A program made the position numbers and the translations under genes. Of a stretch of DNA of 64,000 bases, positions 1 to 64,000 are shown one piece after another (within the stretch, counting starts at the first letter, position 1; each line of letters begins with the position of its first letter). The notes under the pieces were generated by a model that was not told the origin of the DNA, did no database searches, and saw only the letters and a program-made list of their open reading frames with translations. Source of the DNA: Cyanidioschyzon merolae (Eukaryota). The stretch is taken from the NCBI GenBank assembly GCA_000091205.1, contig AP006486.2; one strand, written 5' to 3'.

Positions 1-531
1 GATGGAGACGGAATCGTTGCCAACATCCTCGAGAACACTGCGAACGCTCTGACATGGCCACAGATCCAGCCAGCGCCATCGCTGGGTGACTTGCTCTCGT
101 AGTAACTCGTTCACGTCGGATCGATCACCGCCGAATATCAGCACCAGCGTATATGGATCAGTGAGTTCCTGGGCGAGTCGTTCACGCCAGCGCTGCAGTA
201 GCTCACGCTTTTGACATTCGAGTTGAATTTGCCAGGACCGAAGCGGATGCCCCGTGCTCTGCAACGGAGCGAGCCATCCAAACAGCGCGGCATGCTCTGG
301 TCCCAGCTCTACAATGTCCGGAGATGATGCCGGTTGCTCGGCATCGTGCAGATGCCGTCGCCGTCGAAGTGCATAGCGTTGTGTCGTTCTAGTCGTGGTG
401 CCAGATTCATCCAAACCCAAGAATTCCCCAGTGAAGGAAGGACGAGCAAGCCAACGATATGGCTGAGTCAAAGCACGTACCTTACTAGGCGGAATCGCAT
501 CGGGCAACGTTATCGACGACATGAACGAGAA
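1..531 (-). CDS. Partial open reading frame running off the left window edge; hypothetical protein. Only the N-terminal side of the frame, about 175 codons, lies inside the window.
   Basis: Minus-strand frame is open from about 531 to position 1 (..ELLQRWRERLAQELTDPYTLVLIFGGDRSDVNELLREQVTQRWRWLDLWPCQSVRSVLEDVGNDSVSI). No recognisable domain and no start codon identified. Confidence 0.15.
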
Positions 532-2947
532 ACCCTAGAACGCTTTCGACGGCTGGGCTGTATCTTCCGGTCGCAGCAAGTAGCGTTGAAACCGCTCCTA
601 TCCCCGTTCCACGATAGACTGCAGTAGAGACTACCTTTGTAAAGACTGATCGCGCGACAACAACCCCCAAGCTTCTGGAAAACAGGGGCGGCAACCGGTG
701 TGCGCTCGAAGAGCAGGCCAGGGGTATGCTTGCACTGCCCCGCTGAAGCTGCAGCGTCAAGCCTATGTGGACACTGGCCTACGAGGCAGATTGCCGTTGC
801 TACTATTTAGAATAGCGGTTCCTGTACAGTTGCAAGCCTTGAGTGTGTACCAGGTCTTCGATAACAGCACGTCATCCCTATGAACCTGAAGTTCCCAGCA
901 AGGACTGCAACGCCAACACATGCCTGTTGCGCACGCATCAGATGCCGATAGATGCAATGCGTGCACTTTTGGCGGGAATGAACGAAACTGAATATCACAG
1001 TACAATGTATACATAAGCGGACAGCCTCCGATGCATCACGCGGCTGCCGTGCGTGCTGCACTGCAGACACTCATTCCCCAGCGCCGAAACGCTGCTTCTT
1101 CGAGAGCGACGCGCTTTCAATCGAGTAACCGGAGGCTTTAGCCAGCGCTGCCGTGTGTGTCAAGCGCTCTTCGGGGAACGTTTCGCGTAGTTCACAGTTT
1201 CGGTGGAGGAGAAGACGGCTTTTTGCTTGCAGCATGTCCGCGTCACGAGCCCAGTACGCTGGCTTTGCGGCCGTCCGCAACTCAGTGTATAACTTGTTCA
1301 TGCGTCGGTCCTCTGTGTTTGCGATTGTTATCGTGGCCCTGGGGTATGCTGGATCGGAGGCAATGAATAATTCAGTGGAGCGCGCTTGGGAGCGATACAA
1401 CAAAGGCAAGCTATGGAAACACCTCGAGGCTGAGGTGCGGGCGAAACAAGCCCAAGAGGCAGCCGCAGCTGTTGCGGCGGCGACGGCGTCGGACTCCGAA
1501 ACAGCTCAGACTGCGGACTGAGCGCGTGCTCTCGGGTTTAACGCTGTGCAGGCTGCGCGTTGGTTGGCGACTCTGCTCATGGTTGCGCAAAGAGCGCGTG
1601 GTTTCCGTTGGAAGCTTCGCACGTGATCCAACAAGTACTGCGCTCAGGTCACCGGCGATTCAGCTTGGACGTAAAATGCGAACTAGCATCGGGGGCATGC
1701 CGTTCACCCCCATGGGTTCCCAGCGCACTTCTCAGTGGCAACGAAGCATGCTCATGCGTGCGCATGTTTCGTTTTCTGTTTCTAGTTCGAGAACGGTGCA
1801 CCATTCGAGGAGCGTTCAGAGATCATACAGACACTCATTTCTCGACTCGCAGCAGACCTGAATGATTCTCATGATCGCACTGAACGCCAACTTGTTTCGA
1901 TCAAGTTGATCAGCGCACCGCACTGGCGAGACTGCGTTGCGCATAACGGTCGCCACATGAGCACGCAGTGCATATTTCTCTATCTTCTGCGTTGAAACCG
2001 GCCTGAGATCTCTCACTTGCAACGATGCAACTGGTGTCAGTGGTCTGATTACGGGGATGCTTGCCTTTGCAGGTCTCGAAAATTAGATCATTCAAGTCAG
2101 TATCCAGCGTTCTTCATCGTGCGGCTTGGGTTCTGCATTTGCGGAGGCCGGTCTTCACGGATGGCCTCAGTTCGACAATCACACCGAGAGCACTGGTAAT
2201 CTGTAGCGCTCTATACGAAACGCGCTTTTGCCCACTTGCAACCGATGGGCTCTCAACCGAATCTCAAAATTGCCATTCGATCCGCGTGTGGAACCCCTTG
2301 TAACTGGAGAACAGGGTCTGCTCCTGTTCTTGACGAGAGGCCAGCATCCTTTCGCCAAGGCTCGTCAAAGCGCCTCCAACTGCCGCCTGCAACTCAACGA
2401 AAAACCGTGGCCATCGTGTGCTATCGCAACAACGAGAAGCTAAAGCAGGCTGTAGTGGTTGTCTCGTACAGTGCAACTCCGGGAACGCCGCGCTCCATTG
2501 ACATTGACGTGTCGACCAGGCGCCTGAGCAGCGGCAGCCGCGTCGGCAAGCCTGTCCCCAAAAGCATCCAAAAGCATCCAAAGGACGTGTAGCACACATC
2601 CAACTGCACTGCACGCGACCAGACCTGGAACCTGGAGTCTACTGTAGTTTTTCGGCAGCGTCAGACTCGGTTCCCTTTGTAACAGCGGTCAGCGCCGTCT
2701 GACCGGTCGCAGTCGTCAAGACGTACGCTAGACGTGCAACGCTAGCGGCCACAGTAGACCCTGCAGACGCATATCCACAAGCCGCTATAAGAGTCGACGA
2801 GCACTAGCACTCACAACAACACAGGCTACTGGTCGCCCGTTCATTCGCTGCTGCCAGGCACTCAACCAAACTCGGCGAAAGACCCCGTTTTCTAAGACTA
2901 GAAACCCTTCGATACAGACAGCTTTTATACTCGCTGTACTTGCGACA

Positions 2948-4657
2948 TTGAACACCGTACATAGTACACAGCTTCTGACACCAGCGTTCCCGGGCGAGCA
3001 AGTCCCCACAGCACGTGCCCAGTGTACGGTACGTTTCAGGCGCTTCGCGCCGGGCGCTGGGCAAGCGTTCCCGGGGAAGCGACGCTTGCGGGGTACCCAG
3101 GATCACCCACTGCCACCAACTATGAACGTTGAGTATGGGAAACCTAATGGGAAAGTGTTCAACGACAGCATACACGGCCACATTTACATGCCAGACTACT
3201 GCGTGCGCGTCATCGATACGCCACACTACCAACGCCTGCGTGACCTGAAGCAACTCGGAGTCGTGTACTGGACTTTTCCTGGGGCGAGCCACAATCGCTT
3301 TGAGCACGGCATCGGAACTGCGTACTTGGCAGGTTCCATGGTCACCAATCTTCTTTCGAGGAGCGATTCAATTGCACCCCAGCTGGCCACCAGAAGCGGC
3401 CCTGCACAACCGAGCGAACGAGCAGCGACTCGAGCGCACCCGCTGGACCCTGTGGCGCTCACTTCGTCGACCGCCACCGACTCTGGCGCACGTCAAGGCC
3501 TGCAAAGTAACTGGCGGGATCTCGAGCGTGACTTGCGTCTCGTACGTCTGGCTGGACTGTGTCATGATCTGGGCCATGGACCCTTCTCGCACGTTTTCGA
3601 CCATCAGCTGCTGCCGCGACGAGGTATTCAGAGCGACGTGTATGGGCGCTTTCACGAGCAGCGCTCAGCAATGCTTCTCGCGCACATGTGTCAGCAGTTC
3701 GAGGTCGCACTAGACGCTATGGAAGAGGCGCTCGTTACTGATATGATTCTGGGTAGGCTGAGTCCGCAGAGTGCACGTCTAACGAACCGTTTCCTGCTCG
3801 CTGTGGTGAATAATCAACGCTCTGGAGTCGATGTGGACAAGTTTGATTACTTGACGCGGGATGCACGCTACACCCTGCCGCGCTCTGCAGGTTTCGATTA
3901 TGAACGCTTCCTGCGCTTCAGCCGCGTCATCGGAGATGAGATCTGCTACCACATCAAGGAGGCGAACAACCTGTACGACATGTTCAGTACGAGAATGCGC
4001 ATGCACAAAATGGTTTACAACCACCGAGCGGTTAAGGCCTGTGAGTTTATGATTACGGATGCCATGGTCTTGGCTGACGAGTTCCTGGGTCTTTCGCGTT
4101 CTATCCAGGACCCAGAGGCATTTCTTCAGCTCAGTGACTGGATCCTGAAGCGGATTGAGTTTTCCACGGAGGCGTCGCTTGGCGCAGCCAAGTCGCTGAT
4201 CCAACAGCTGCAACGACGTGAGCTTTATCGATTCGTTGGTGCCGCGCTGGTTCCAGTATCGTGTGCGTCTGTTAGTGCTGGTGACTTAACCGCCTGGCAA
4301 AGCGACGGCTTCGTTCAGTTACGACCAGAGGATCTCATTGTGCACCATCAAGTCATAAACTATGGCAAGGAAGGTGGAGCGGACCCCGTCGAGCAGGTGC
4401 GATTCTTTGTCGATTGGTCCACCGATGAGACCGTTGGCGTACGTCGAGAGCAGGTAAGTTCCCTGATTCCGAGCCATTTCGAAGAACGGATGCTCATGGT
4501 CTATTCACGTCGACGCGACCCGCGTTATGTGCAGGCAGCACGACAGGCGTTTGAGCGAATGCTCCAGCGGCAGGGCGGATGGAGTCCTCCGCATCGACAA
4601 GTTGGCGCTGGGGAACAGCTGCCACAACTCTTTCCTGATCGTAAAACCATCGCCTAG
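2948..4657 (+). CDS. HD-domain dNTP triphosphohydrolase, SAMHD1-like. The true start may be the internal Met near 3122 (MNVEYGKPNGKVFNDSIHGH).
   Basis: Motifs FNDSIHGHIYMPDYCVRVIDTPHYQRLRDLKQLGVVYWTFPGASHNRFEHGIGTAYLAG and LCHDLGHGPFSHVFD match the SAMHD1 HD-domain signature (H..H, HD, D). Single 569-codon ORF with a low-complexity insert. Confidence 0.75.
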   Translation: MNTVHSTQLLTPAFPGEQVPTARAQCTVRFRRFAPGAGQAFPGKRRLRGTQDHPLPPTMNVEYGKPNGKVFNDSIHGHIYMPDYCVRVIDTPHYQRLRDLKQLGVVYWTFPGASHNRFEHGIGTAYLAGSMVTNLLSRSDSIAPQLATRSGPAQPSERAATRAHPLDPVALTSSTATDSGARQGLQSNWRDLERDLRLVRLAGLCHDLGHGPFSHVFDHQLLPRRGIQSDVYGRFHEQRSAMLLAHMCQQFEVALDAMEEALVTDMILGRLSPQSARLTNRFLLAVVNNQRSGVDVDKFDYLTRDARYTLPRSAGFDYERFLRFSRVIGDEICYHIKEANNLYDMFSTRMRMHKMVYNHRAVKACEFMITDAMVLADEFLGLSRSIQDPEAFLQLSDWILKRIEFSTEASLGAAKSLIQQLQRRELYRFVGAALVPVSCASVSAGDLTAWQSDGFVQLRPEDLIVHHQVINYGKEGGADPVEQVRFFVDWSTDETVGVRREQVSSLIPSHFEERMLMVYSRRRDPRYVQAARQAFERMLQRQGGWSPPHRQVGAGEQLPQLFPDRKTIA

Positions 4658-22179: not shown

Positions 22180-22778
22180 AAACAAAAACGTTCAACGACC
22201 ATGGAGGGTAAATACGTATACCCACGCGCATGCGCCTCTGCGCCGTTCGTGACCGGTCCCCTGGCATCTATTTCGGTTTCTAACAGTACACTTCGAGCAG
22301 CAGAGGTTGCTAGATGAAGTTAGATCGCCTCAGCTCCCCTGGTCTCTCGTATTCAGCATCCCACATCGTCTGCTGCTGGGTGACGGCGCTGGTGTCTCAG
22401 TTGACGAGCTCCCTGCGTGCATTGAGGCTGGTGGAGCTCCCCAGCACAAGGAGGCCTCTAATTCGAGCCCTCTGTGGCACTGCAGTAAGGTCATCGTCCC
22501 GTAGCGCAAACGCCCTCTCTCGCCTATTTCCCCCTTCTTCTTCGTCGACACTTGCGCTTTTCCCTCGATGGGTGGAGAAAACAGAATTTTTCGTTTTCTT
22601 TCCCGGCAGCCGGTGATGACAGCCTTCGAGGATCCCCGACGCCCATCTTTGCTCCTTTCCCTTGGATTCTTACTTTTCTTCAAATGAGCGCACGTCGAAC
22701 GCATCCGCTCTAAACTGCGAAAACGAATTTGACGACACGCATCTGGGAGTCGGAGCACGATTGATGAGAAAGACTATA
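22180..22778 (-). mobile_element. MITE-like, internally deleted derivative of the Fanzor/TnpB-like element family (copy M1)
   Basis: Collinear, roughly 70-80% similar over its whole length to the element at 63392-63975. Shares the 5' terminal block (..tcttcaaatga.cgcac...gaacgc.tc...gaaagactat) with the Fanzor copies at 36.2 kb and 37.15 kb. Retains a degenerate stretch homologous to the region encoding the RuvC-III motif. Homology with M2 ends at both boundaries. Confidence 0.55.
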
Positions 22779-32807: not shown

Positions 32808-33008
32808 GGCGCCCGAGCACACGCACACGCACACATGCACCTGTTGACTGACTCGGTTAGGATCAGCGACGATAATCGCGCGTATTCCTTCGTCGGACTC
32901 GGGCGTCAACCTCGGGTAACCGCACGATAAGGCGCAGACGTTTCCGAAAGCGTCATGTTCGCGGGTTCGCGCCATCTGCGAGGATTAGCATTTGCCGGAT
33001 CGGAGCAT

Positions 33009-33689
33009 TTACAGTGGATAAGAGTACTCAACCTGGTGTCCCGAATGCACGACGGCCGTCCCGAATGCATTCTGCGTGACAAAAAGCAGCATGACCTCGC
33101 CGGTGTTGCTATCCCGAATGATCCACGGGTGACCCACGTACGTGGGCTGGAAGCGGCTCTTGCCGGGTTCCAGCCACCCAAACGGTATCTCTTGACCATT
33201 GAAATCAATCCAGTTCACTTCGACGACAACACCGGAGTCAGAGAGGTTCTCAAAAAGAATTAAGGTTCGGTCTTCGGTTTCAGAAGAACGGATTCCCTCC
33301 CAGTGGGGGCGCAAGTTGGGCGCCGCGGTCAGTCCCTCAGAAAATGGCAACGTTGGCATATTCGTTTCGGGGAAAGGAGCGGGAAGCGAAATGCCGTCTT
33401 CTACCCAAAGTTGACGAGCCGGTTCCCGAACCATACGAACGATAGCTTGCTCATTTGATTGTGCTAAAGCGGCGAGTACGCCTTTGTTCTCGACAACGGA
33501 CCGCGGCGCCAGCAGCCAGTCCCAGGCGAAGGCCACAGTCGTCGTTGCGCTGCGCGAATAAGACCACTGGTTCGGTGCACAGCACCCACAACCGGAGCGA
33601 CGTCGCCATCGTATTGGAAGCTTTCTCGCACCGCCCGCATTACCAGCGGTGCTAAACCCCAAAACGTGAACAAGCGCACCCGTTCCCAT
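33009..33689 (-). CDS. Hypothetical protein with a VHL beta-domain-like segment
   Basis: LILFENLSDSGVVVEVNWIDFNGQEIPFGWLEPGKSRFQPTYVGHPWIIRDSNTGEVMLL follows the pattern of the pVHL beta domain ([56 protein letters not shown]). The match was done by eye. Confidence 0.35.
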   Translation of the reverse strand: MGTGALVHVLGFSTAGNAGGARKLPIRWRRRSGCGCCAPNQWSYSRSATTTVAFAWDWLLAPRSVVENKGVLAALAQSNEQAIVRMVREPARQLWVEDGISLPAPFPETNMPTLPFSEGLTAAPNLRPHWEGIRSSETEDRTLILFENLSDSGVVVEVNWIDFNGQEIPFGWLEPGKSRFQPTYVGHPWIIRDSNTGEVMLLFVTQNAFGTAVVHSGHQVEYSYPL

Positions 33690-33846
33690 TCAAGCGCACG
33701 GAGGTCTTTTCGCGGTTGCAGCTCCCAAGCAAGCTCTGAAAATATGGTTCCGTTCAAAAAAAGATTCCCTGATACTTTACAAGTTTGTATATGTGTTAGA
33801 AAGCTGCAAGCGAAGATACCGGTCTCGAGCAACACGATGTTCGAAA

Positions 33847-34000
33847 GTCGAACGTCGCCACCGGTGTACAGTAGTGGCGACCGGCGCCCTAGACAAGAAG
33901 TCGCTAACGGATGTGCAGACATCTCCCAGCCGCTTTGGACCGGCCACCTTCTACTGGTTCCAACTTTTTCTCGTATAGTTCCACTTTGAGAGGTTGTCCG
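33847..34000 (-). ncRNA. Candidate omega-RNA (reRNA) scaffold region at the 3' end of Fanzor copy 1. This is a prediction and its extent is unknown.
   Basis: In TnpB/Fanzor systems the guide RNA scaffold overlaps the 3' end of the ORF and ends at the element's right end. Here a perfect 8-bp stem (gtcgccac/gtggcgac, 33853-33880) lies about 10 bp inside the point where copy 1 and copy 2 stop being homologous. Confidence 0.25.
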
Positions 34001-36124
34001 ATAAAGTTCTCTCTTGTCGGCTCTGGAGGTCTTTTCTCTAGCACCGTACATTTCCTTATATTGATGGCGGCATTAAAGTCTCGGTTCACAAACTCCATCC
34101 GTTTCTTCCATCATTGCTTGTTCTAACCAGCGCAGGTAGTCCACGAACTTTCGTCCTCCTTTCCATTTGCTCCTCCTTCAGCGGTCCGCACTTTGCTATA
34201 TGTTCAGGGGTCCGTTGGCACTTTTCTTTCTCGACCATCTGAAGTGTACAACCCAGTTCATGGTGTGTATAGGACGTTCGAAACTCATCTATCGGTATCG
34301 TAACGAAGCGGCTTGTGCACTCCTTGTACGTTCTTGTTGACGGAGCTGTTGTACTCCCTTTCTTCGACGCCCAGCGTCCTGCCCCATACGCTACCAGGAG
34401 CCTCTGACTTCCATCCTCCTTCAAGGCGTTCAACCGGTTGAAAAAATTCGCAACCGCCCGCTGTTTTCCACAATACAAATTCATTCGCAAACGAGCCCAC
34501 CGGGGCTTGGTATACTCCGCCCACAGTGCATCCCCATGGGCAACACGAACATCCATGAATTTCCGAAAAGGTTCAAAGTCCGCTCCTCGGCTCGTCGCCT
34601 CGCTCAAAGCTTCCAGGTGATCCTTCATTTCTGCATTCCACGGACCAATTTTCTTTCTTGCATTCACTATACCGGATTCTCGATAGTATCTCGCTCTGGC
34701 GAGCCTCAAAAGACGCATGTCTGTCTGGCGTAAGTTGCAATCAGTACCATCATCCGCACGCTTGGGAGCAGCGATGGTTATGATATTTGTGTTTCTAGGA
34801 TCCCCGCCAACGACAAAGTCGTTATCCTGCACCTCCTGCATCGTAGGACCCGCCTCCTTCTCATCTTCATCCTTCGTCACGGGTGCAGCCGAGGACGGAA
34901 CTGAACAATCCGCGTTCAAGCGCCGATTGTGTGCACACAGGGCTACCCCATCGGTTTTGATCATCCCAGTAAATACCTTTTGCTTGCTCACTTTGAGACA
35001 TTTGAAATCGAAGATGTTCTTCCAGTACGTCTTCCGGTTTTCACCGGAGAACTCCTCCCTGCTAACATCGAACTCCGGACAGATCTCCTTCATGATGCCG
35101 TAAAGGATTCTGGAGTCGATAGTCACAAAATGTGACTTGATCTTGCCCAACGGAACCACGTCGAAGCGCTTCCCTACTAGGAAAGCCTTCCGTCTCTCCC
35201 ACTCTTCATTTTTCCCGTTCAGCTTCATCTCTGCCTTGCGTTCGAGTTCTCGGTCCAGAAACACGAAATAGCACAGAATGAGGCGATCGTATCTTTCCTG
35301 ATCTTTGCTCAACTCTGATACCTTGTCTGTTGGATTCGGTAGCCCCAGTACCGCACGATGCTCTTGTATAACCGCACGGATCGCAGAAGCTTCATTCGTG
35401 GTCTCGTTTGACGCCTTCTTGTCGACAAATTCTACCTCATCTTCACGCTTGCGATCTTTCATGATGCCATTGATAATCGTCCATTTTCCATTGCGAGAGA
35501 TGCCCGGGTAGAGTGCAAACACGGTGCGTATCATGAAACGTTCGAGGTTCCCTGTCTCATGGTTCTTCAGATTCGTGAGGTACTTCATCGCCCCATAGCT
35601 GTAGATATCTCGGTCACCCTTGTTTCGAGTATCTTTGAAGCTGTAAAAGGGATGTCTTTCGTGTAGGGCATGTACTTGCTCATTTTTCCCTCCGTGTTTG
35701 CCCTGAACCAAGCATCAGGTGACGAACGAAGGTCTTGTCGAAGATCTCGTCTGGAATCTCGACTGTTTTGATGGCCGCCACGTCGCGATACATCTCCCTC
35801 GCCAGATGCATCAGTCCTGACAACGCCTTGACGATACTCTTAGAGTACGAGTCGAAAAGGTTGTGGATGGCCTCTTGAAACATTTGCTTGTAGAGATCCT
35901 TGATGTAATTAAGAAGACAGGCTTTCACCACCATCTCGTTGTACAGTCGTCTTTCTTGCCGCCTTCGACGTGGGGCCTTCCCTCTTTCGGTTCTTCTTCT
36001 CCTCCTTTTCTTCTGGACACGGCACTGTTTTTTGTTTTTGTTTTCCAGCAGCCGGCGACCCTGGGCCTCCAGGATCGTCGACTCAGTTTTTCATAACTTT
36101 CCATTTTTTTGGTTTTTTTGAAAA
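33904..36124 (-). pseudogene. Fanzor/TnpB-like nuclease pseudogene: RuvC-I, TS-x-x-C zinc-finger region and RuvC-III are present, and at least 3 frameshifts are needed to join the ORF pieces.
   Basis: ORF pieces 35925-36305 (K/R/E-rich NLS-like N-terminus), 35680-35934, 34086-35711 (541 aa) and 33904-34098. RuvC-I-like VVGGDPRNTNIITIA; IDEFRTSYTHHELGC plus CQRTPEHIAKC (TS-Cys zinc-finger position); and MEFVNRDFNAAINIRK, the canonical TnpB/Fanzor RuvC-III motif. Comparison with copy 2 locates 1-nt indels in an A5 run near 35700 and at ggaagaaacgg near 34100. Confidence 0.7.
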
Positions 36125-37245
36125 AAGCACTCTGTGAACGCTTCTCCAATATACTACGAAAAAAACACTTGACTAGACTTGTTTGAGTTTTGAAACATAA
36201 ATGAACTGAAAAACTATACTTTGCTACGTCCTGAACGGAAATCCGACTTTTCCAGCTGAATAACACGCTACTGATCAAAATCGCGTTTCCCTTCAACAAC
36301 GGCACCGTGCGCGTCGTGTCTCATGCCTGCCAGATCTCCCAGGTGCGCTCACTATGCGTCGATTCGTTTTCCGATGTCAACACCTTGCCATAGAACATAG
36401 AATCCAGATTGCGGGATGGATACTGAAATAAATGAGAGCGCTCATTATTCTTCGCTCCACCTTCAAGTTCCATTACTTATACTTCCTCTGGGATCTACTG
36501 GTCGTTTCGTATATTCTATCGTGCACCGAGTGCCTGCCTCGCTGCACCTGCAATAGCGCCCGTATCGTTGGAGCAGCTGCATCACCGAGACAGAAGAGCT
36601 TTGCCATACCACTGAGGGCGTCGGATCGAGGAATACTTCTCCTCACACGGACTCGGAGTGCATAATCACTCTGGTAACCAGCATGCTGTGCTTAAAGGCC
36701 TACTGCCTGTGGCAGCGCGGAGCGATGTACTAGGAGCCACTGCGACCAGCGCAACGCCCAGAAGCAGCGTACCCGCTCCTAGTCCCAGGATAAACTGCGT
36801 TGCGGACGGACTGCTCAGATCGGACCAAAGCACCTGCCACTGGGAGGAGCATGAAGCACGAGGCTAGCTGTCTCGTACGACTCATGGGACCTTCCACCAA
36901 GAAGGTAAACCTTCGGCAATATGGAAAGCTTTCCCCTTTTAACGTTTCTCGTAGAGGGGTAACGAAATTGTTATCTCATTACTGCGTGGTCGCTCGTTGC
37001 TGTTCTTTTTCCTAGAGCGCAGTCTGTTAGCACACCTGGGAGATCTGGCGGGCGTGAGACACGACTTGCAACTCGCAGTTGAAGCGAAACACGATCCTGA
37101 TCATTTGTAGACTTGTTACTGTGACTGGCAAGTTGTATTTGCATGAAAGTCGTAGCAAAGTATAGTCTTTCAGTTCTATCATGTCTCAACCACCAAGTAA
37201 CTGTATTCAAGTGATATTTCGCGGTTTATAGCGGAAGCGTTAATC

Positions 37246-39469
37246 GTGAACTCGTTTGCAAAAATAAATAAAGTTATGGAAATGAAAGTAGAGGATCCTG
37301 GAGGGCCTGTGCCGCCGCGTGCCGAGAAAAATACGGAAAACAGTGCCGTCCATGAGGAACAGGTGAAGACGGTGAAGCAAAAGGGGGCGAACCGACACCA
37401 GAACCTGCACGAAAGACGACAGTACGACGAATTGGTAGTGAAAGCCTGTCTTCTTGAACGTAACGCGGATCCCGTGAAGCAAAAGTTCTGAGATGCCATC
37501 AGAAACCCTACTGCATCTCACTCCTTGAGTGTTTGTAACGCATCTTCAGCACCAATTCATCTGACGAAGGAGATGTACCATGACGTGACGGACATCAAAA
37601 AAGTCGAGGCTCCGGAAGAATTGTCCAACGTGACCTTCCTTCGCCACGAGATGCTTGACACATGGGAAACAACGAGGAGAAATGAGCGAGTGCATGCACT
37701 CTACGAAAATTATGCAGAGTGCCGCTCCAACGGCACTCGATATAGGGGTGACTCAAATGTTCACAATTACGTGGCGATGAAGTACCTCTCGAATCTGAAG
37801 AACAAAACGACCATGAACCTGAAACGCTTCATGATACGCTCCATCTTTGCGCTCTACCCTGGGCTGTCTCGAAAAAAAAGGATATGGGCCATCATGATTG
37901 GCATCACGAACGATCGTCGGGATGCACAGGAGATCGAATTCGTGAACAAGAGGACATCACACAGGAGAAGGAAGACGCTTCTTTGATCCGTGCGGCGATT
38001 CATAAGCACCGCGTGGTTTTGGGGCTTGTCAACCCAACAGAAAAGGTTTCAGATATGAAAAAAGATGTTTTTCCCGCATCCTGCGCTAGTTCGTGTTCCT
38101 GAAGCGTGAACTCGGACGCAAGGCCGAAAAGGAGCTGAATGGGGGAAAAATGGAGAGTTGTTGGAACGGAAAGCTTTCGTACTGGGGGAACGCTTCAATG
38201 TCGTTTCGTTTTGCAACATCTAGTCAATGTTTGTTACATTCGACTTCAGAGTCCTTCATGGCATCATGAGGGAGATCAGTCCAGGGTTCGATGTGAGGAA
38301 GATACGGTTCATCGGCGAGAAACCGGGAGACATACCAGAAGAACATCTTCGATTTGAGACATCTCAAAACGAGCAAGAAAAAGTATTAACGGAGATGATC
38401 GAAACCGATGGAGTAGCCGTATTCGTACACTATAGTCGCTTGAAGGCAGATCGTCCTGTTCCGTCTTCGCTATCGCACTTGGCGAAACGTGAAGAAAACA
38501 AGGATGCGGATCCTGCGACACAGAAAGTGCAGGATAACGACTTTGTCGTTGGCGCGAACCCCGGAAACACGAATATCGTAACCATCGCTGTGCCCAGGCG
38601 TGCGGAAGATGGTACTGACGGCAACTTACGCCAGAAAGACATGTGTCTTTTGAGGCTCGCCAGAGCGAGATACTATCGAGAATCCGGTATAGTGAATGCA
38701 AGAAAGAAAATTGGTACGTGGAATGCAGAAATGAAGGATCACCTGGAAGCTTTGAGCGAGGCGACGAGCCGAGGAGCGGACTTTGAACCTTTTCGGAAAT
38801 TCATGGATGTTCGTGTTGCCCATGGGGATGCACTGTGGGCGGAGTATACCAAGCCCCGGTAGGCTCGTTTGCGAATGAATTTGTATTGTGGAAAACAGCG
38901 GGCGGTTGCGAATTTTTTCAATCGGTTGAACGCCTTGAAGGAGAATGAAAGTCAAAGGCTGGTAGTGGCATACTGAGCAGGGCGATGGAAGACCCGAAAA
39001 GGGTGTACGCCAGCTCCAATGACAAGAGCGTACAAGGAGTGCACGACGTTTCGTTACAATGCCTGTCGATGAGTTTCGAACATCGTATGCACACCATGAA
39101 CTGGGATGTACACTTCAGAAGGTCGAGATGGAAAAGTGCTAGCGGAGCCCTGAACATATAGCAAAGTGCGGACCGCTGACGGAGGAGCAAATAGAAAGGA
39201 GAGCGAAAGTTCGTGGACTACCTGCGCTGGTTAGAACAAGCAATGATGGCAAGAAACGGATGGAGTTTGTGAACCGAGACTTTAATGCCGCCATCAATAT
39301 AAGGAAATATACCGTGCTGGAGACGAGACCTCCAGAGCCGACAAGAGAGAACTTTATTGGACAACCTCTCAAAGTGGTACTATACGAGAAGAAGTTGGAA
39401 GCAGTAGTGGGTGGCCGGTCCAAAAAGACTGCGAGGCGCCTGCACATCAGTTGGCGTCTTCTTGTCTAG
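37246..39469 (+). pseudogene. Fanzor/TnpB-like nuclease pseudogene (copy 2), broken by several frameshifts and in-frame stops. The RuvC-I Asp is replaced (GANPGN).
   Basis: ORF pieces 37246-37491 (MEMKVEDPGGP.., NLS-like), 37525-37986, 37884-38102, 38227-38862 (..DNDFVVGANPGNTNIVTIA..) and 39260-39469 (MEFVNRDFNAAINIRKYTVLETRPPEPT..). There is a TAG where copy 1 has TGG at about 38862. Confidence 0.7.
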
Positions 39470-39522
39470 GGCGCCGGTCCCCGTTACTGTACACCGGTGG
39501 CGACGTTCGACTTTAGAACAGC
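39370..39522 (+). ncRNA. Candidate omega-RNA scaffold region at the 3' end of Fanzor copy 2 (prediction)
   Basis: Position homologous to the copy-1 3' terminus. The stem seen in copy 1 carries 3 mismatches here (gtccccgt versus gtggcgac), consistent with decay. Confidence 0.2.
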
Positions 39523-39563
39523 GTTGATGGCGCCGCTCTGAAAATTCGCGTACCTCCGCGAGG

Positions 39564-40292
39564 ATGCCGCCACCAAACGACTCGCAGCGGTACTTCGAAG
39601 AGGGGCCCGTTCTTGCGCACCGCACGGACTGGAAACCCATCGCTGAGCGCTCAACTGCACAGCGCCCTGAGCCAGCACTGCAGGCAACCACAGAAGCGCC
39701 GAGCTGGTGGCGACAGGTGACGCGGCGTGGCGCTCGTGTCTTCCTCTTTTACGCGCTTCTTTATCCGTTGCTGGTGCTTTGTGTGGTAGGCGGTATTGTT
39801 GGTGGGTTCATCGGCGGTTTTTGGCTTGACTGGCACGCCATTCGACTGGCCGGCAACGCCTGGCTGGCGCTTGTCTCTATTCCGTATGCGACCGGTTTCC
39901 TTGCGCTCCTGTGGTTGATGCGAGCGGAGAGCTTCCGTGGGGCTTCCGCGGGCGCACTGAGCTTCGCATCGAACGCGCTTGGGAATGCAGCTAGTCGCTG
40001 CACTGCTCGCCTTTTGTTGTCATTGTCAATATCTGGGTCACTGGCGCTCCCCGCGTTTCTCTTCCTGAGCCGGCGGGTGCCGGCAGACGCAGCCCTGATC
40101 TGCACCGCAGGCACCGCTGTGATTTGTGCTTCGCTGGCGCTATGGGCGTTCGTTTTGGAGAGTGACTGGCTGGAGCCGCGAACCTGGCTCGAGCCCACAG
40201 CCCCATCGAACGTGTGGATACGACCCTCGTACTGGCCTCGACGTGAACATTATATCGACCTGGAAGCAGCGCCTACACGGACTGGCGGATAG
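39564..40292 (+). CDS. Hypothetical polytopic membrane protein. Its start lies about 40 bp downstream of the Fanzor copy-2 right end.
   Basis: 242-codon ORF with 4-5 hydrophobic helices (LFYALLYPLLVLCVVGGIVGGFIGGFWL, AWLALVSIPYATGFLALLWLM, ..). No family recognised. Confidence 0.4.
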   Translation: MPPPNDSQRYFEEGPVLAHRTDWKPIAERSTAQRPEPALQATTEAPSWWRQVTRRGARVFLFYALLYPLLVLCVVGGIVGGFIGGFWLDWHAIRLAGNAWLALVSIPYATGFLALLWLMRAESFRGASAGALSFASNALGNAASRCTARLLLSLSISGSLALPAFLFLSRRVPADAALICTAGTAVICASLALWAFVLESDWLEPRTWLEPTAPSNVWIRPSYWPRREHYIDLEAAPTRTGG

Positions 40293-42332: not shown

Positions 42333-43931
42333 AAATAGAGTCTCCCAAGGTATCCTAGCAAACACGCAAAAAGTACACGATCGTGCGCGCTCTTCAGTAA
42401 CAAAACGCTCCAGCCAATAGGGGAGGCAGCGCAGCGCCCTGCGCCATCCGCCGTCAGCCGTCGACGCGATGCGCGCAGCATTGCTGCACTGCCCGGAAAG
42501 CGCGGCTTCGTATAGCTGGTGCTCTTCCGGAGACTGGGACGCAGAGCGGCACCTACATCGCAGTCGTATAACAGAAGCAACATCAGCAGAAGCACACGAG
42601 GGGAGTACGTTTGATTCGGTATAGCTGGAGGCAGCGTTCAACGACGGTTGCGTACGAGCGACCTGCGTTACGCTAGGGCGCTTTTTCTCGCGTGAACGAC
42701 CGGAAGCGGTTGGTACCAGGAGTGCCAGCACCGAAGCCTCTTGTGGTGTGACTGCTACCCAGAAAGCGTCCCGCTGGTGGCGGGCTCGGTTCAGCGAGCG
42801 CGTGAGTTCGCATCTTCGTGCGTACGACGACAGGCACGTAGAGACGCCAGCGTAACGGGTGTAGTGCGCGCCTCCGCCGGGTAACGCTCTTTACCATAAG
42901 GTCGCTGCTTCCAGAAAAGTGTGGTAACATTCGACTGGCGGTTTCACGAACGTGTCATAGTGACAACTGGAACAGCGTACCACCGGTAAGCATGGGTGGT
43001 ACACCGCGCTACCCGTACCCACGCGACGTCTGGTCGCCAGCTGGCGGCTGGTGGCCGCATCCTCGCGCTTGGCGTAGGAACACTGCAGTGGCAGCGTTCG
43101 GCCTCGTTCTTGTTCTGACGCCGATCTTCATCTACTCTGAGCGGATCTCCGAACGGCCTGAGGACGCCGCACGCCAGATCCCTTGGCGGCCGTGGGTCAA
43201 GGTGCGGGCAAACTCCATGACGTCAGAAACTGAACCCGGGCAGCACTGAGGGCCTTGCTGCAGCATGCGGCGGTGCGTCGAGAGCATCAGCGCTTGTGGA
43301 TGGAGCTTGTGCTTCCAAGTCGATCAAGGAGCGGTCACGCAAGCGACGATATAAACCAGAGATTCCGACGCGGTGAGATTCTTCTCTGAACGGAACGGAC
43401 AGGAAAGAATGGCATTTAAGGGTTCTATGCGGAGCGACGCGGACATCTGACCTGTGTTGCATGCGCGGCGCTCCGTGTATCTGTTTCCATATGAGTGCTG
43501 TTATGCGCTGTGGCGAGCAGTGCCAGCGGCAGCGTCTGGTACCAGTATCGCCGCTAACAACGAGCACACTACACTGCACACGCAGTGCAGCCGACAAGCT
43601 CCAGGACGGCAGGTACCAGCGACACACTTGGAGCAACGGGCAGGTTGCGCTTGTCCGATCGTATCCGTTGAGATGGATGCGCATGCTTGTTCCCGCTATC
43701 GAAAATGCAACGGTTGTGTGTCACTTTCGTGAACCGAGTTCGTCTGCGCCAGTCTTTATCGCGTATCTTGTTGCGCCCGAGAAAGATACCGTAAAAACAC
43801 GAGAAACACACCAAGGGTCCCGCATCACCATAAACGTTGAAGCTCGCGAAAACGTGCTGCCCTGGTATCCCAAACCGCGCAAACGTCAGCCAGCGCCGTC
43901 CGCTCCCGCGACCGTAGAATGCATCGCTGGT

Positions 43932-44139
43932 GAACGTACAACTCACCTCAGGCCCTTTTATCACTCAGAGAACAACATGACGAAGTATGACTGTGCTAGT
44001 GTCCCGAAAGATGCACCGCTGGCGACCATAAACCGCACCTCAGGCCCTTTTATCACTCAGAGAACAACATGACGAAGTATGACTGCGGTGGTGTCCCACC
44101 AGATGCACCGCTGGCGAACGTACAACTCACCTCAGATCC
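43932..44139. repeat. Tandem duplication, 92-bp unit x about 2.3
   Basis: gaacgtacaactcacctcaggcccttttatcactcagagaacaacatgacgaagtatgactg..gatgcaccgctggc is repeated at 43932 and 44024, with a partial unit at 44116. Confidence 0.85.
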
Positions 44140-49914: not shown

Positions 49915-50329
49915 CGTCGAATAACGAGCAAGGAATGCGCTGCGGCTGGAGCGAAGCGCCGGTGGGCGTCCACCGGCGCAGCTCAGGGGGAACGATCGTT
50001 GAGGCAGGCGCTTTCGTGGCGTACGCTTTATGGGCCTTTACCTCGAGTGTATTTTATCCTCAGGTGTGGGTAACCAATTGCTTATCCATGGTGCATAGCG
50101 GATGCGTTAGAAGTGCGTTCATTGGAAGGAAGAAAGGCTGTCATCGCCGGATGCGATAAAAAATACCAAAAAAATGTCTCTTGTCGCCGACTGCCGAGCG
50201 ACGGCGATAAAGAAAAACAAGAGGGCATCTAGGCGAGGAAAGGCGTTCGCCCGGCCTGGCGATGGCCAGACTCTAGGGGTACAGGGGGGTGAGGGTGAGG
50301 GGGGTGTTCGACTCTGAGCAATCCCTGAA

Positions 50330-50625
50330 TTGGTGCGTTCAACCAGCGGCACTGCATATAAGGAGTTCATCAACGAAGACTTTTCACACCACGATCGATA
50401 CCAAGCGACGGGTGTGGTGCTGGAGACGAGAAACCCGAGGAGCTGACGCGATCCAGCCCAGTCGGACAGCCGCTCACGGTCGACTTGTACAACGACAAGT
50501 TGGAATCAGTACCAAGGGGCCGGTCAAAAAAAGTCGCGAAGCACCTGCACGTCGGTCTCTCTACATACACGCTACGGTCGGAATGCACTTTGGTGCTGCA
50601 TCGGTGGCGGCATTCGTACCGCATA
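50330..50625 (+). mobile_element. Solo 3'-terminal fragment of a Fanzor-like element (degenerate RuvC-III coding remnant plus 3' end)
   Basis: ttcatcaacgaagacttttcacaccacgatcgataccaag..gtgctggagacgagaaacccgaggagctgac..cacctgcacgtc..catcggtggcggcattcg is collinear with the copy-2 sequence ttgtgaaccgagactttaatgccgccatcaatataagg..gtgctggagacgagacctccagagccgac..gcctgcacatc..caccggtggcgacgttcg. The motif is degraded to FINEDFSHHDRYQ. Confidence 0.45.
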
Positions 50626-63391: not shown

Positions 63392-63975
63392 GGCGCTGCG
63401 ATCACAGAGGGCATACATAAACACCCACTCACAGACGCCTCCGAGCCCTTTTCGACGGGCCGCCTGCTATCGGCTACAGTTTTTATCGCAGCGCACTTCG
63501 TGTTGAGCGGCTGCCCGGTAAGCTTAGATGGCGGCAGCTCTGCGAGTCTCTTGTCGTCAGCACCGCACACATCATCTGGTATTGGTGGCAGCATTGAAAT
63601 CTGGGTTCTCGAGCTCCATGCGTTTATTGCCGCTGAATGAACTCGCCAGCGCAAGGATTCCTCTAATTTGTACCCTCTGTGGAAATACAGTCTCACCATC
63701 GTCCCGTCGGGCAAACACCTCTTCTCGCATATACCCCATCGTCTTCGTCACTTGCGTTTCTTCGCTCGATTGTCGGCGAGAAGAAGATTTTTTCGTTTTG
63801 TTTTCGGGCACCCGGCGATGATGGCCCTCCAGGATCCGCGACTTTCCGGTCCATACCTTCCCATTAGATTTTTATTTCTTCAAATGAACGCACTTTGAAC
63901 GCTTCTCCAATAAACCGCGAAAGCGCATTTGATGACACGGAAGTGAGCGTGCAATGCAATTAAGGTGAAAGACTA
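63392..63975 (-). mobile_element. MITE-like, internally deleted derivative of the Fanzor/TnpB-like family (copy M2); it may extend past the window end
   Basis: Collinear with M1 (22180-22778). Its 5' block is ..tcttcaaatgaacgcactttgaacgcttctccaataaaccgcg..gaaagactat. It retains a short ORF ending MELENPDFNAATNTR, a decayed version of MEFVNRDFNAAINIRK, and its antisense frame matches the copy-2 antisense frame (LVLVAALKSGFSSSMRLLP versus LILMAALKSRFTNSIRFLP). Confidence 0.55.
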
Positions 63976-64000
63976 TGCCAGCGCGAGCATATGCTAGACC

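Follow-up and report, generated by a model that had tools for sequence, protein, structure and literature searches.

The subject of this analysis is a TnpB/Fanzor-like reading frame that lies in pieces on the minus strand of a 64,000-nt stretch of Cyanidioschyzon merolae DNA (contig AP006486.2 of the assembly GCA_000091205.1; hereafter the window). The frame belongs to one of two neighboring, inverted copies of the transposable element CMe-1A, here called copy 1, the other being copy 2. We conclude, with a probability of about 0.94, that copy 1 is an old 5'-truncated CMe-1A insertion and that its Fanzor1 gene is a genuine pseudogene. The first-pass annotation, made from the sequence alone, had raised the prospect that assembly errors conceal a near-intact gene; this prospect faded upon comparison with independently assembled contigs, where three of the four disabling lesions recur in 11 of 11 cases.

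Reading frame and lesions of copy 1

The frame consists of a 136-codon open stretch (36090-35683), which holds an open reading frame (ORF) of 84 amino acids (aa), followed by a 541-aa ORF (35711-34086) and a 64-aa ORF (34098-33904). The reference for its repair was the published CMe-1A consensus, whose DNA and protein sequences were taken from the supplementary files of Bao & Jurka 2013 (PMC3627910; the DNA from supplementary file 2). The codon-aware alignment of copy 1 with the consensus coding sequence comprises 732 codons, among which 465 are identical, 93 differ synonymously and 172 non-synonymously, so that about 23% of the amino acids depart from the consensus; it also contains three frameshifting indels, two premature stops and two in-frame 3-base indels. 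The disabling lesions are four: a TGA at codon 4, two +1 insertions (one in the N-terminal region and one at site 1), and one missing C (site 2; all in Table 1). The site-1 frameshift terminates the 84-aa ORF at the TGA in 35682-35680, and a TAG at consensus codon 730 (33906-33904) cuts off the last 5 codons. At site 2 (34112-34099) copy 1 exhibits the deleted form GATGGAAGAAACGG, i.e. GATGG-AAGAAACGG, while copy 2, the consensus and 13 other assemblies exhibit the C-bearing form GATGGCAAGAAACGG. The K/R-rich stretch around the N-terminal insertion is a candidate nuclear localisation signal (NLS).

The first-pass annotation used copy 2 as its guide and proposed three frameshift sites in homopolymer runs, to be restored by one added base each. 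The positions of the three breaks were right, but the lesions number four, the TGA at codon 4 having been missed. The addition of one C at site 2 was borne out, as it fuses the 541-aa and 64-aa ORFs and as copy 2, the consensus and the 13 assemblies all have the C. The addition of one A at site 1 is the reverse of what is needed: copy 1 has one surplus base there (AGGGAAAAATGAG vs AGGAGAAATGAG), an added A leads to a stop after 173 aa, and in the in-silico frame test the repair works by taking out one base. The one-base addition proposed for the N-terminal region (35960-35990) does yield a 733-aa ORF, provided that the site-1 base is removed and the site-2 C is added, but this ORF begins at an ATG at 36104, which is not the family start (the ancestral ATG is given in Table 1), and over the first ~43 residues its frame is not that of the family. 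Homopolymer runs are present in a loose sense at two sites (G3A5 and A2/C4) and not at site 2, where the loss is of a single C, with GG before it and AAG after.

The published consensus is a better repair guide than copy 2, because the latter has itself accumulated 8 frameshifting indels and 6 premature stops, and its RuvC-I Asp is replaced by Asn. The RuvC-I region of copy 2 (38540-38560) reads GANPGNTN. Introns were considered as the cause of the frame breaks and ruled out, since the breaks are shifts of one base within a sequence colinear with an uninterrupted consensus coding sequence; the presence of introns in only 0.5% of C. merolae genes (PMC1955436) also counts against them.

Independent assemblies of the locus

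Fragments of the ORF in a protein collection led to 19 loci, i.e. 18 distinct contigs (L010 repeats L004), from hot-spring metagenomes. Their identity to the window is 98.6-99.8%, and those that reach far enough show its flanking genes as well. All of the 11 contigs (from 11 samples) that cover the codon-4 TGA and the site-1 insertion have both lesions base-for-base. The N-terminal insertion is likewise present in all 11 covering contigs, in 10 of them in identical form and in one (L007) with an additional adjacent 1-base deletion. As they are common to all 11 independent contigs, these three lesions are old, fixed mutations. Site 2 behaves differently: the C is present in 13/13 covering contigs and missing only in the window, which represents strain 10D. 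The contig closest to the window (L019) differs from it by 4 substitutions and the site-2 indel in 2369 bp.

Decay has continued separately in the sampled lineages. Private lesions include an additional A at 35310, a lost G at 35594 and a 1-base deletion at 35983, and nonsense alleles segregate at 35558, 34498 and 34463. The ORF products of the locus in the protein collection (clustered at 90% identity) are 137, 193, 255, 363, 453 and 602 aa long. The longest corresponds to the least decayed haplotype seen (L012, positions 978-2786; JGI 3300051093, Ga0504774_001252), in which a 602-aa ORF runs unbroken from the site-1 frameshift up to the end; the three upstream lesions are still there. The 10D sequence exhibits 18 private substitutions in 2.5 kb, and 12 of them are packed in 83 bp (35258-35340), where the other allele is common to all metagenome haplotypes and agrees with the CMe-1A consensus at the positions compared. 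The cluster may have arisen by a conversion private to the strain, with a diverged copy as donor.

The polymorphism of the ORF (86 sites) is spread evenly over the codon positions (27/25/34, p = 0.46), and its non-synonymous fraction is 0.686, as compared to 0.732 expected under neutrality, i.e. for random mutation at the observed transition:transversion ratio of 53:33 (p = 0.33). The raw ratio of non-synonymous to synonymous polymorphism (pN/pS) is 0.62. Weak constraint could be read from this value, but with the correction for the transition:transversion ratio the non-synonymous fraction is not distinguishable from the neutral one. In the flanking genes 0.3-0.9% of the sites segregate, pN/pS lies at 0-0.16 and indels are absent. 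The polymorphism pattern together with this contrast is the signature of an unconstrained pseudogene.

Active-site residues and the Fanzor1 fold

Two rounds of homologue searching retrieved more than 140 relatives, many of them with uninterrupted ORFs of 600-700 aa. Copy 1 lacks the uninterrupted ORF of a functional member, with its stop at codon 4 and three frameshifts. Judged from the alignment of 118 sequences, all three predicted catalytic residues, Asp/Glu/Asp, survive in copy 1 (Table 1; residue numbers refer to the repaired protein). The first-pass annotation had recognized a Fanzor with an intact RuvC-I Asp and an intact RuvC-III motif, and both motifs are indeed found; the identification agrees with the 84.5% identity of copy 1 to the CMe-1A Fanzor1 consensus (blastn of the published consensus against the window, 2500 columns). 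D671 is out of frame with the rest of the protein in the window owing to site 2, and in the RuvC-III motif at least 90% conservation is seen at R670, D671, N673, A675, N677 and I678. The P-G dipeptide that follows the RuvC-I Asp is at least 90% conserved in the family, and copy 1 has Arg in place of this Gly (G432R).

The first-pass annotation could not locate the RuvC-II Glu by eye and left it to a comparison with Fanzor1 structures, which was carried out for a relative of copy 1. In Fanzors the canonical RuvC-II position is known to hold Gly or Pro, with an alternative Glu in use downstream (PMC10530073). In the family of copy 1 the canonical position is occupied by an invariant Gly (G569), and an invariant Glu (E602) follows 33 residues later; it is preceded by a β-strand in the AlphaFold2 model of P0050, a relative that is 42% identical to copy 1. 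On the grounds of motif, strand position and spacing we assign E602 as the relocated RuvC-II Glu. The active site of SpuFz1 comprises D383, N385, E541 and D606 (PMC10432273); copy 1 resembles it in having Gly at the canonical position of RuvC-II, a relocated Glu and a D...E...D spacing similar to that of D383/E541/D606: E541 and D606 are 65 residues apart in SpuFz1 (PMC10432273), E602 and D671 are 69 apart in copy 1.

The model of P0050 was predicted with high confidence (predicted local distance difference test, pLDDT, 91.8; predicted template modelling score, pTM, 0.89). In the Foldseek comparison of this model with the PDB the best seven matches were all Fanzor1 structures (SpuFz, PpFz and GtFz; E = 6e-18 to 3e-15), matched over the whole length (template modelling scores 0.65/0.72), with Cas12f and other Cas12 proteins far behind. 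The model, which is that of P0050 and not of copy 1 itself, shows the Fanzor1 fold of the family. The fold is shared with SpuFz1, GtFz1 and PpFz1 (8GKH, 9CEU, 9CER and 9CF1 in the PDB) at only ~14% sequence identity. Sequence and profile searches against PDB chains gave no matches even at E = 10, and the scan of the repaired protein and its relatives against a local copy of Pfam found no significant family and no TNB match. The precomputed annotation of the clade is Pfam DUF8286, an uninformative label.

SpuFz1 and the ISDra2 TnpB carry a CCCC zinc finger in the NUC/TNB domain. In contrast, 117 aligned sequences of the CMe-1 / DUF8286 clade revealed no conserved CxxC...CxxC pattern in the interval E569-D636 (P0050 numbering), whose columns contain only one Cys conserved at 68% and two His at 32-44%. 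The alignment indicates that the absence of the zinc finger is a trait of the whole clade and not a defect of copy 1. The interval examined corresponds to residues 602-671 of copy 1 (34286-34078 in the window).

The locus, its host and the element family

Two ORFs that flank the copy pair match exactly CMD063C (BAM79146.1) and CMD066C (BAM79147.1) of strain 10D, which identifies the host as Cyanidioschyzon merolae 10D, in agreement with the host of the CMe-1A family; the CMD prefix suggests chromosome 4. CMe-1A is the one Fanzor1 family described in C. merolae (Bao & Jurka 2013, Mob DNA 4:12; PMC3627910). It comprises ~150 copies, each ~80% identical to a 3169-bp consensus that encodes a 734-aa Fanzor1 protein; terminal inverted repeats are absent, target-site duplications are reported as undetermined, and some copies still encode intact proteins (PMC3627910). 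In its termini CMe-1A differs from Spu-1, which has 30-nt inverted repeats, none being reported for CMe-1A. The genome paper described 253 copies of a 3.2-kb interspersed repeat, on all chromosomes and amounting to ~5% of the genome, all with a truncated ORF weakly related to WSV486 of the white spot syndrome virus (WSSV), and reported that the repeat is transcribed (PMC1955436). A Fanzor1 from the WSSV genome is listed by Bao & Jurka (PMC3627910). From the size, the organism and the WSSV relationship we infer that this repeat is CMe-1A; there is no material difference between the two, the description of the repeat being older than the Fanzor/TnpB assignment.

Copy 1 resembles the published family in the organism, the single-ORF organisation and the protein motifs, and the ~15-18% divergence of the window copies from the consensus fits the published ~80% identity. 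It differs from the consensus in its 5' truncation, in one early stop and three frameshifts, and in having a head-to-head partner copy, with sequence exchanged between the two. The 5' truncation has removed 659 bp of the consensus, the TE-N2_CMe-like part. Copy 2 is full-length; its segment 37026-39524 on the plus strand is 78.6% identical to copy 1 in inverted orientation. The 5' ends of the two copies face each other across a 23 bp gap (36348-36372), copy 2 with consensus position 1 and copy 1 with consensus position 660. Bao & Jurka equated one part of CMe-1A with the separate element TE-N2_CMe, and precisely this part is absent from copy 1; the Fanzor unit and TE-N2_CMe may be separable modules.

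The two copies are ~65-75% identical in the 5' two-thirds and 86-100% identical in the entire 3' 1 kb. Within the latter lies a 323-bp tract (Table 1) that looks like the product of gene conversion between the inverted repeats. The hairpin predicted just after the stop codon has arms TGCCGCCA/TGGCGGCA at the same place in the consensus, i.e. a compensatory change, and is a candidate for a right-end or omega-RNA structure. Rfam gave no match in 33000-40000 at E up to 0.1, and the predicted RNA fold of the 3' 226 nt is not distinctive (z = -1.2).

Table 1. Coordinates of the CMe-1A copies, of the Fanzor1 remnant and of its lesions and motifs in the window.
Feature	Position	Strand	Basis or remark
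Copy 1, 5'-truncated CMe-1A element	36348-33856	minus	consensus positions 660-3145, blastn
Copy 2, full-length CMe-1A element	36372-39502	plus	consensus positions 1-3145, 82.2% identity, blastn
Remnant Fanzor1 (CMe-1) coding region	36094-33904	minus	ancestral ATG 36094-36092 to TAG 33906-33904
Nonsense codon 4, TGA (consensus GAA)	36085-36083	minus	codon-aware alignment
N-terminal +1 frameshift, GAAGGCCCCA vs consensus GAGGCCCGA	35981-35972	minus	codon-aware alignment
Site 1, +1 frameshift in GGGAAAAA (consensus GGAGAAA)	35690-35683	minus	codon-aware alignment
Site 2, 1-base deletion (C)	between 34108 and 34107	minus	alignment to copy 2, consensus and contigs
Predicted RuvC-I Asp, D430, GGDPRNTN	34802-34800	minus	column invariant in 118-sequence alignment
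Canonical RuvC-II position, Gly G569, VAYGAGR	34385-34383	minus	column invariant in 118 sequences
Assigned relocated RuvC-II Glu, E602, IDEFRTS	34286-34284	minus	invariant in 118 sequences
Predicted RuvC-III Asp, D671, NRDFNAAINI	34080-34078	minus	column 99% conserved
Putative gene-conversion tract	34738-34416, vs 38621-38943 in copy 2	minus; plus in copy 2	323 bp, 5 mismatches
Subterminal 3' hairpin, GGTCGCCAC / 12-base loop / GTGGCGACG	33882-33853	minus	minimum-free-energy fold; just after stop codon

Other short and diverged CMe-1A fragments are scattered in the window at 63432-63976 (minus strand), 22587-22778 (minus strand) and 50326-50556 (plus strand), 67-75% identical to the consensus. 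At 43919-44135, outside the present finding, 125-bp overlapping self-matches with an offset of ~92 bp and ~85% identity suggest a short tandem repeat.

Alternative explanations

Could all frame breaks be errors of the reference, so that copy 1 in fact encodes a near-intact Fanzor1? The site-2 deletion occurs in the window only (in 0/13 other assemblies), two of the sites fall in short base runs, and the putative catalytic D/E/D residues are all there. Nevertheless, this explanation has hardly any chance of being correct: three of the four lesions are shared by all 11 covering assemblies, in which both the samples and the technologies differ, the genome of reference has been finished from telomere to telomere (PMC1955436), and copy 1 in addition exhibits G432R beside the catalytic Asp and ~23% of amino acids off the consensus. 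Besides, one private indel is expected in 10D, given its 18 private substitutions in 2.5 kb. The missing C alone could be either a mutation of the strain or an error of the reference. In the latter case the true 10D sequence would carry the 602-aa ORF, as L012 does, and would still be a pseudogene through the upstream lesions. The presence of the C in all 13 other contigs, including the one that differs by 4 substitutions only, speaks for such an error, but no homopolymer is present at the site, the reference is of finished quality, and private single-base indels are about as frequent in other haplotypes (35310, 35594 and 35983), so that a genuine deletion private to 10D would be nothing unusual; we regard the error as rather unlikely, and the repair of site 2 alone gives no functional gene in any event.

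Or perhaps the locus is kept for a role other than that of a full-length nuclease, either non-coding (a 3' omega-RNA or a transposon end used in trans) or through an N-terminally truncated product of the 541/602-aa ORF? In favor of this, conservation is highest in the 3' 1 kb, the hairpin exhibits a compensatory change with respect to the consensus, transcription of the repeat family has been reported (PMC1955436), all sampled lineages have the insertion and the predicted catalytic residues are intact. However, the polymorphism of the ORF is neutral, with stops and frameshifts segregating inside the 602-aa region, gene conversion explains the 3' similarity to copy 2, the 3' fold reaches a z of only -1.2 and has no Rfam match, and the truncated product would be ~130 residues short and devoid of the basic N-terminus. 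A retained role is accordingly very improbable. Slighter still is the chance of a more elaborate combination, in which the missing C is an error and an L012-type 602-aa ORF with the D/E/D residues kept is translated from an internal start as an NLS-less truncated Fanzor1 with a regulatory or trans-acting role, or else the 3' end donates omega-RNA to intact CMe-1 copies.

Several points weigh against our conclusion that copy 1 is a genuine pseudogene. The 10D sequence itself was checked only indirectly. A collection of 15 billion proteins contains no independent match to the 10D version of the ORF, either with the C (602 aa) or without it (541 aa), while the L012 ORF, used as a positive control, was recovered. 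A metagenome contig may represent a consensus of strains, and one site series may account for several of the samples. The flanking-gene control is partly biased, as ten of the loci were picked by exact identity to CMD063C. Finally, the 602-aa ORF of L012 and a raw pN/pS slightly below 1 leave room for a very weak constraint on the C-terminal part.

Proposed history and implications

An intact 734-aa protein of the family would be an omega-RNA-guided RuvC endonuclease, built of a basic N-terminal region, the RuvC-I Asp, Gly at the RuvC-II position, the relocated Glu and the RuvC-III RDxNAA motif. With a bound omega-RNA, transcribed at the element's 3' end, it would cut guide-complementary DNA beside a transposon-adjacent motif, as do SpuFz1 and other Fanzors; we infer this RNA-guided activity of intact CMe-1 members from the literature, by analogy. 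In copy 1 the codon-4 nonsense mutation and the two +1 frameshifts came first and became fixed before the sampled lineages diverged. Later, lineage-specific events would include the loss of the C at 34107/34108 in 10D, and, in other lineages, the additional A at 35310, the loss of G at 35594 and the nonsense codons, and the sequence would besides have been reshuffled through gene conversion with the inverted copy 2. Copy 1 is a molecular fossil, unable to make the nuclease and still exchanging sequence with its inverted neighbor.

The element family, its assignment to Fanzor1, its copy number and the decay of most copies were already published in 2007 and 2013, and copy 1, as an ordinary dead copy of this family, adds little new biology; work on active Fanzors should not turn to this locus. 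Doubt about the reference is confined to one base, at 34107/34108. For the family, the relocated RuvC-II Glu of CMe-1 is now placed, by assignment, in the motif IDEFRTS, and for the organism, contigs from hot-spring metagenomes can replace read-level evidence when lesions in the C. merolae reference are to be judged.

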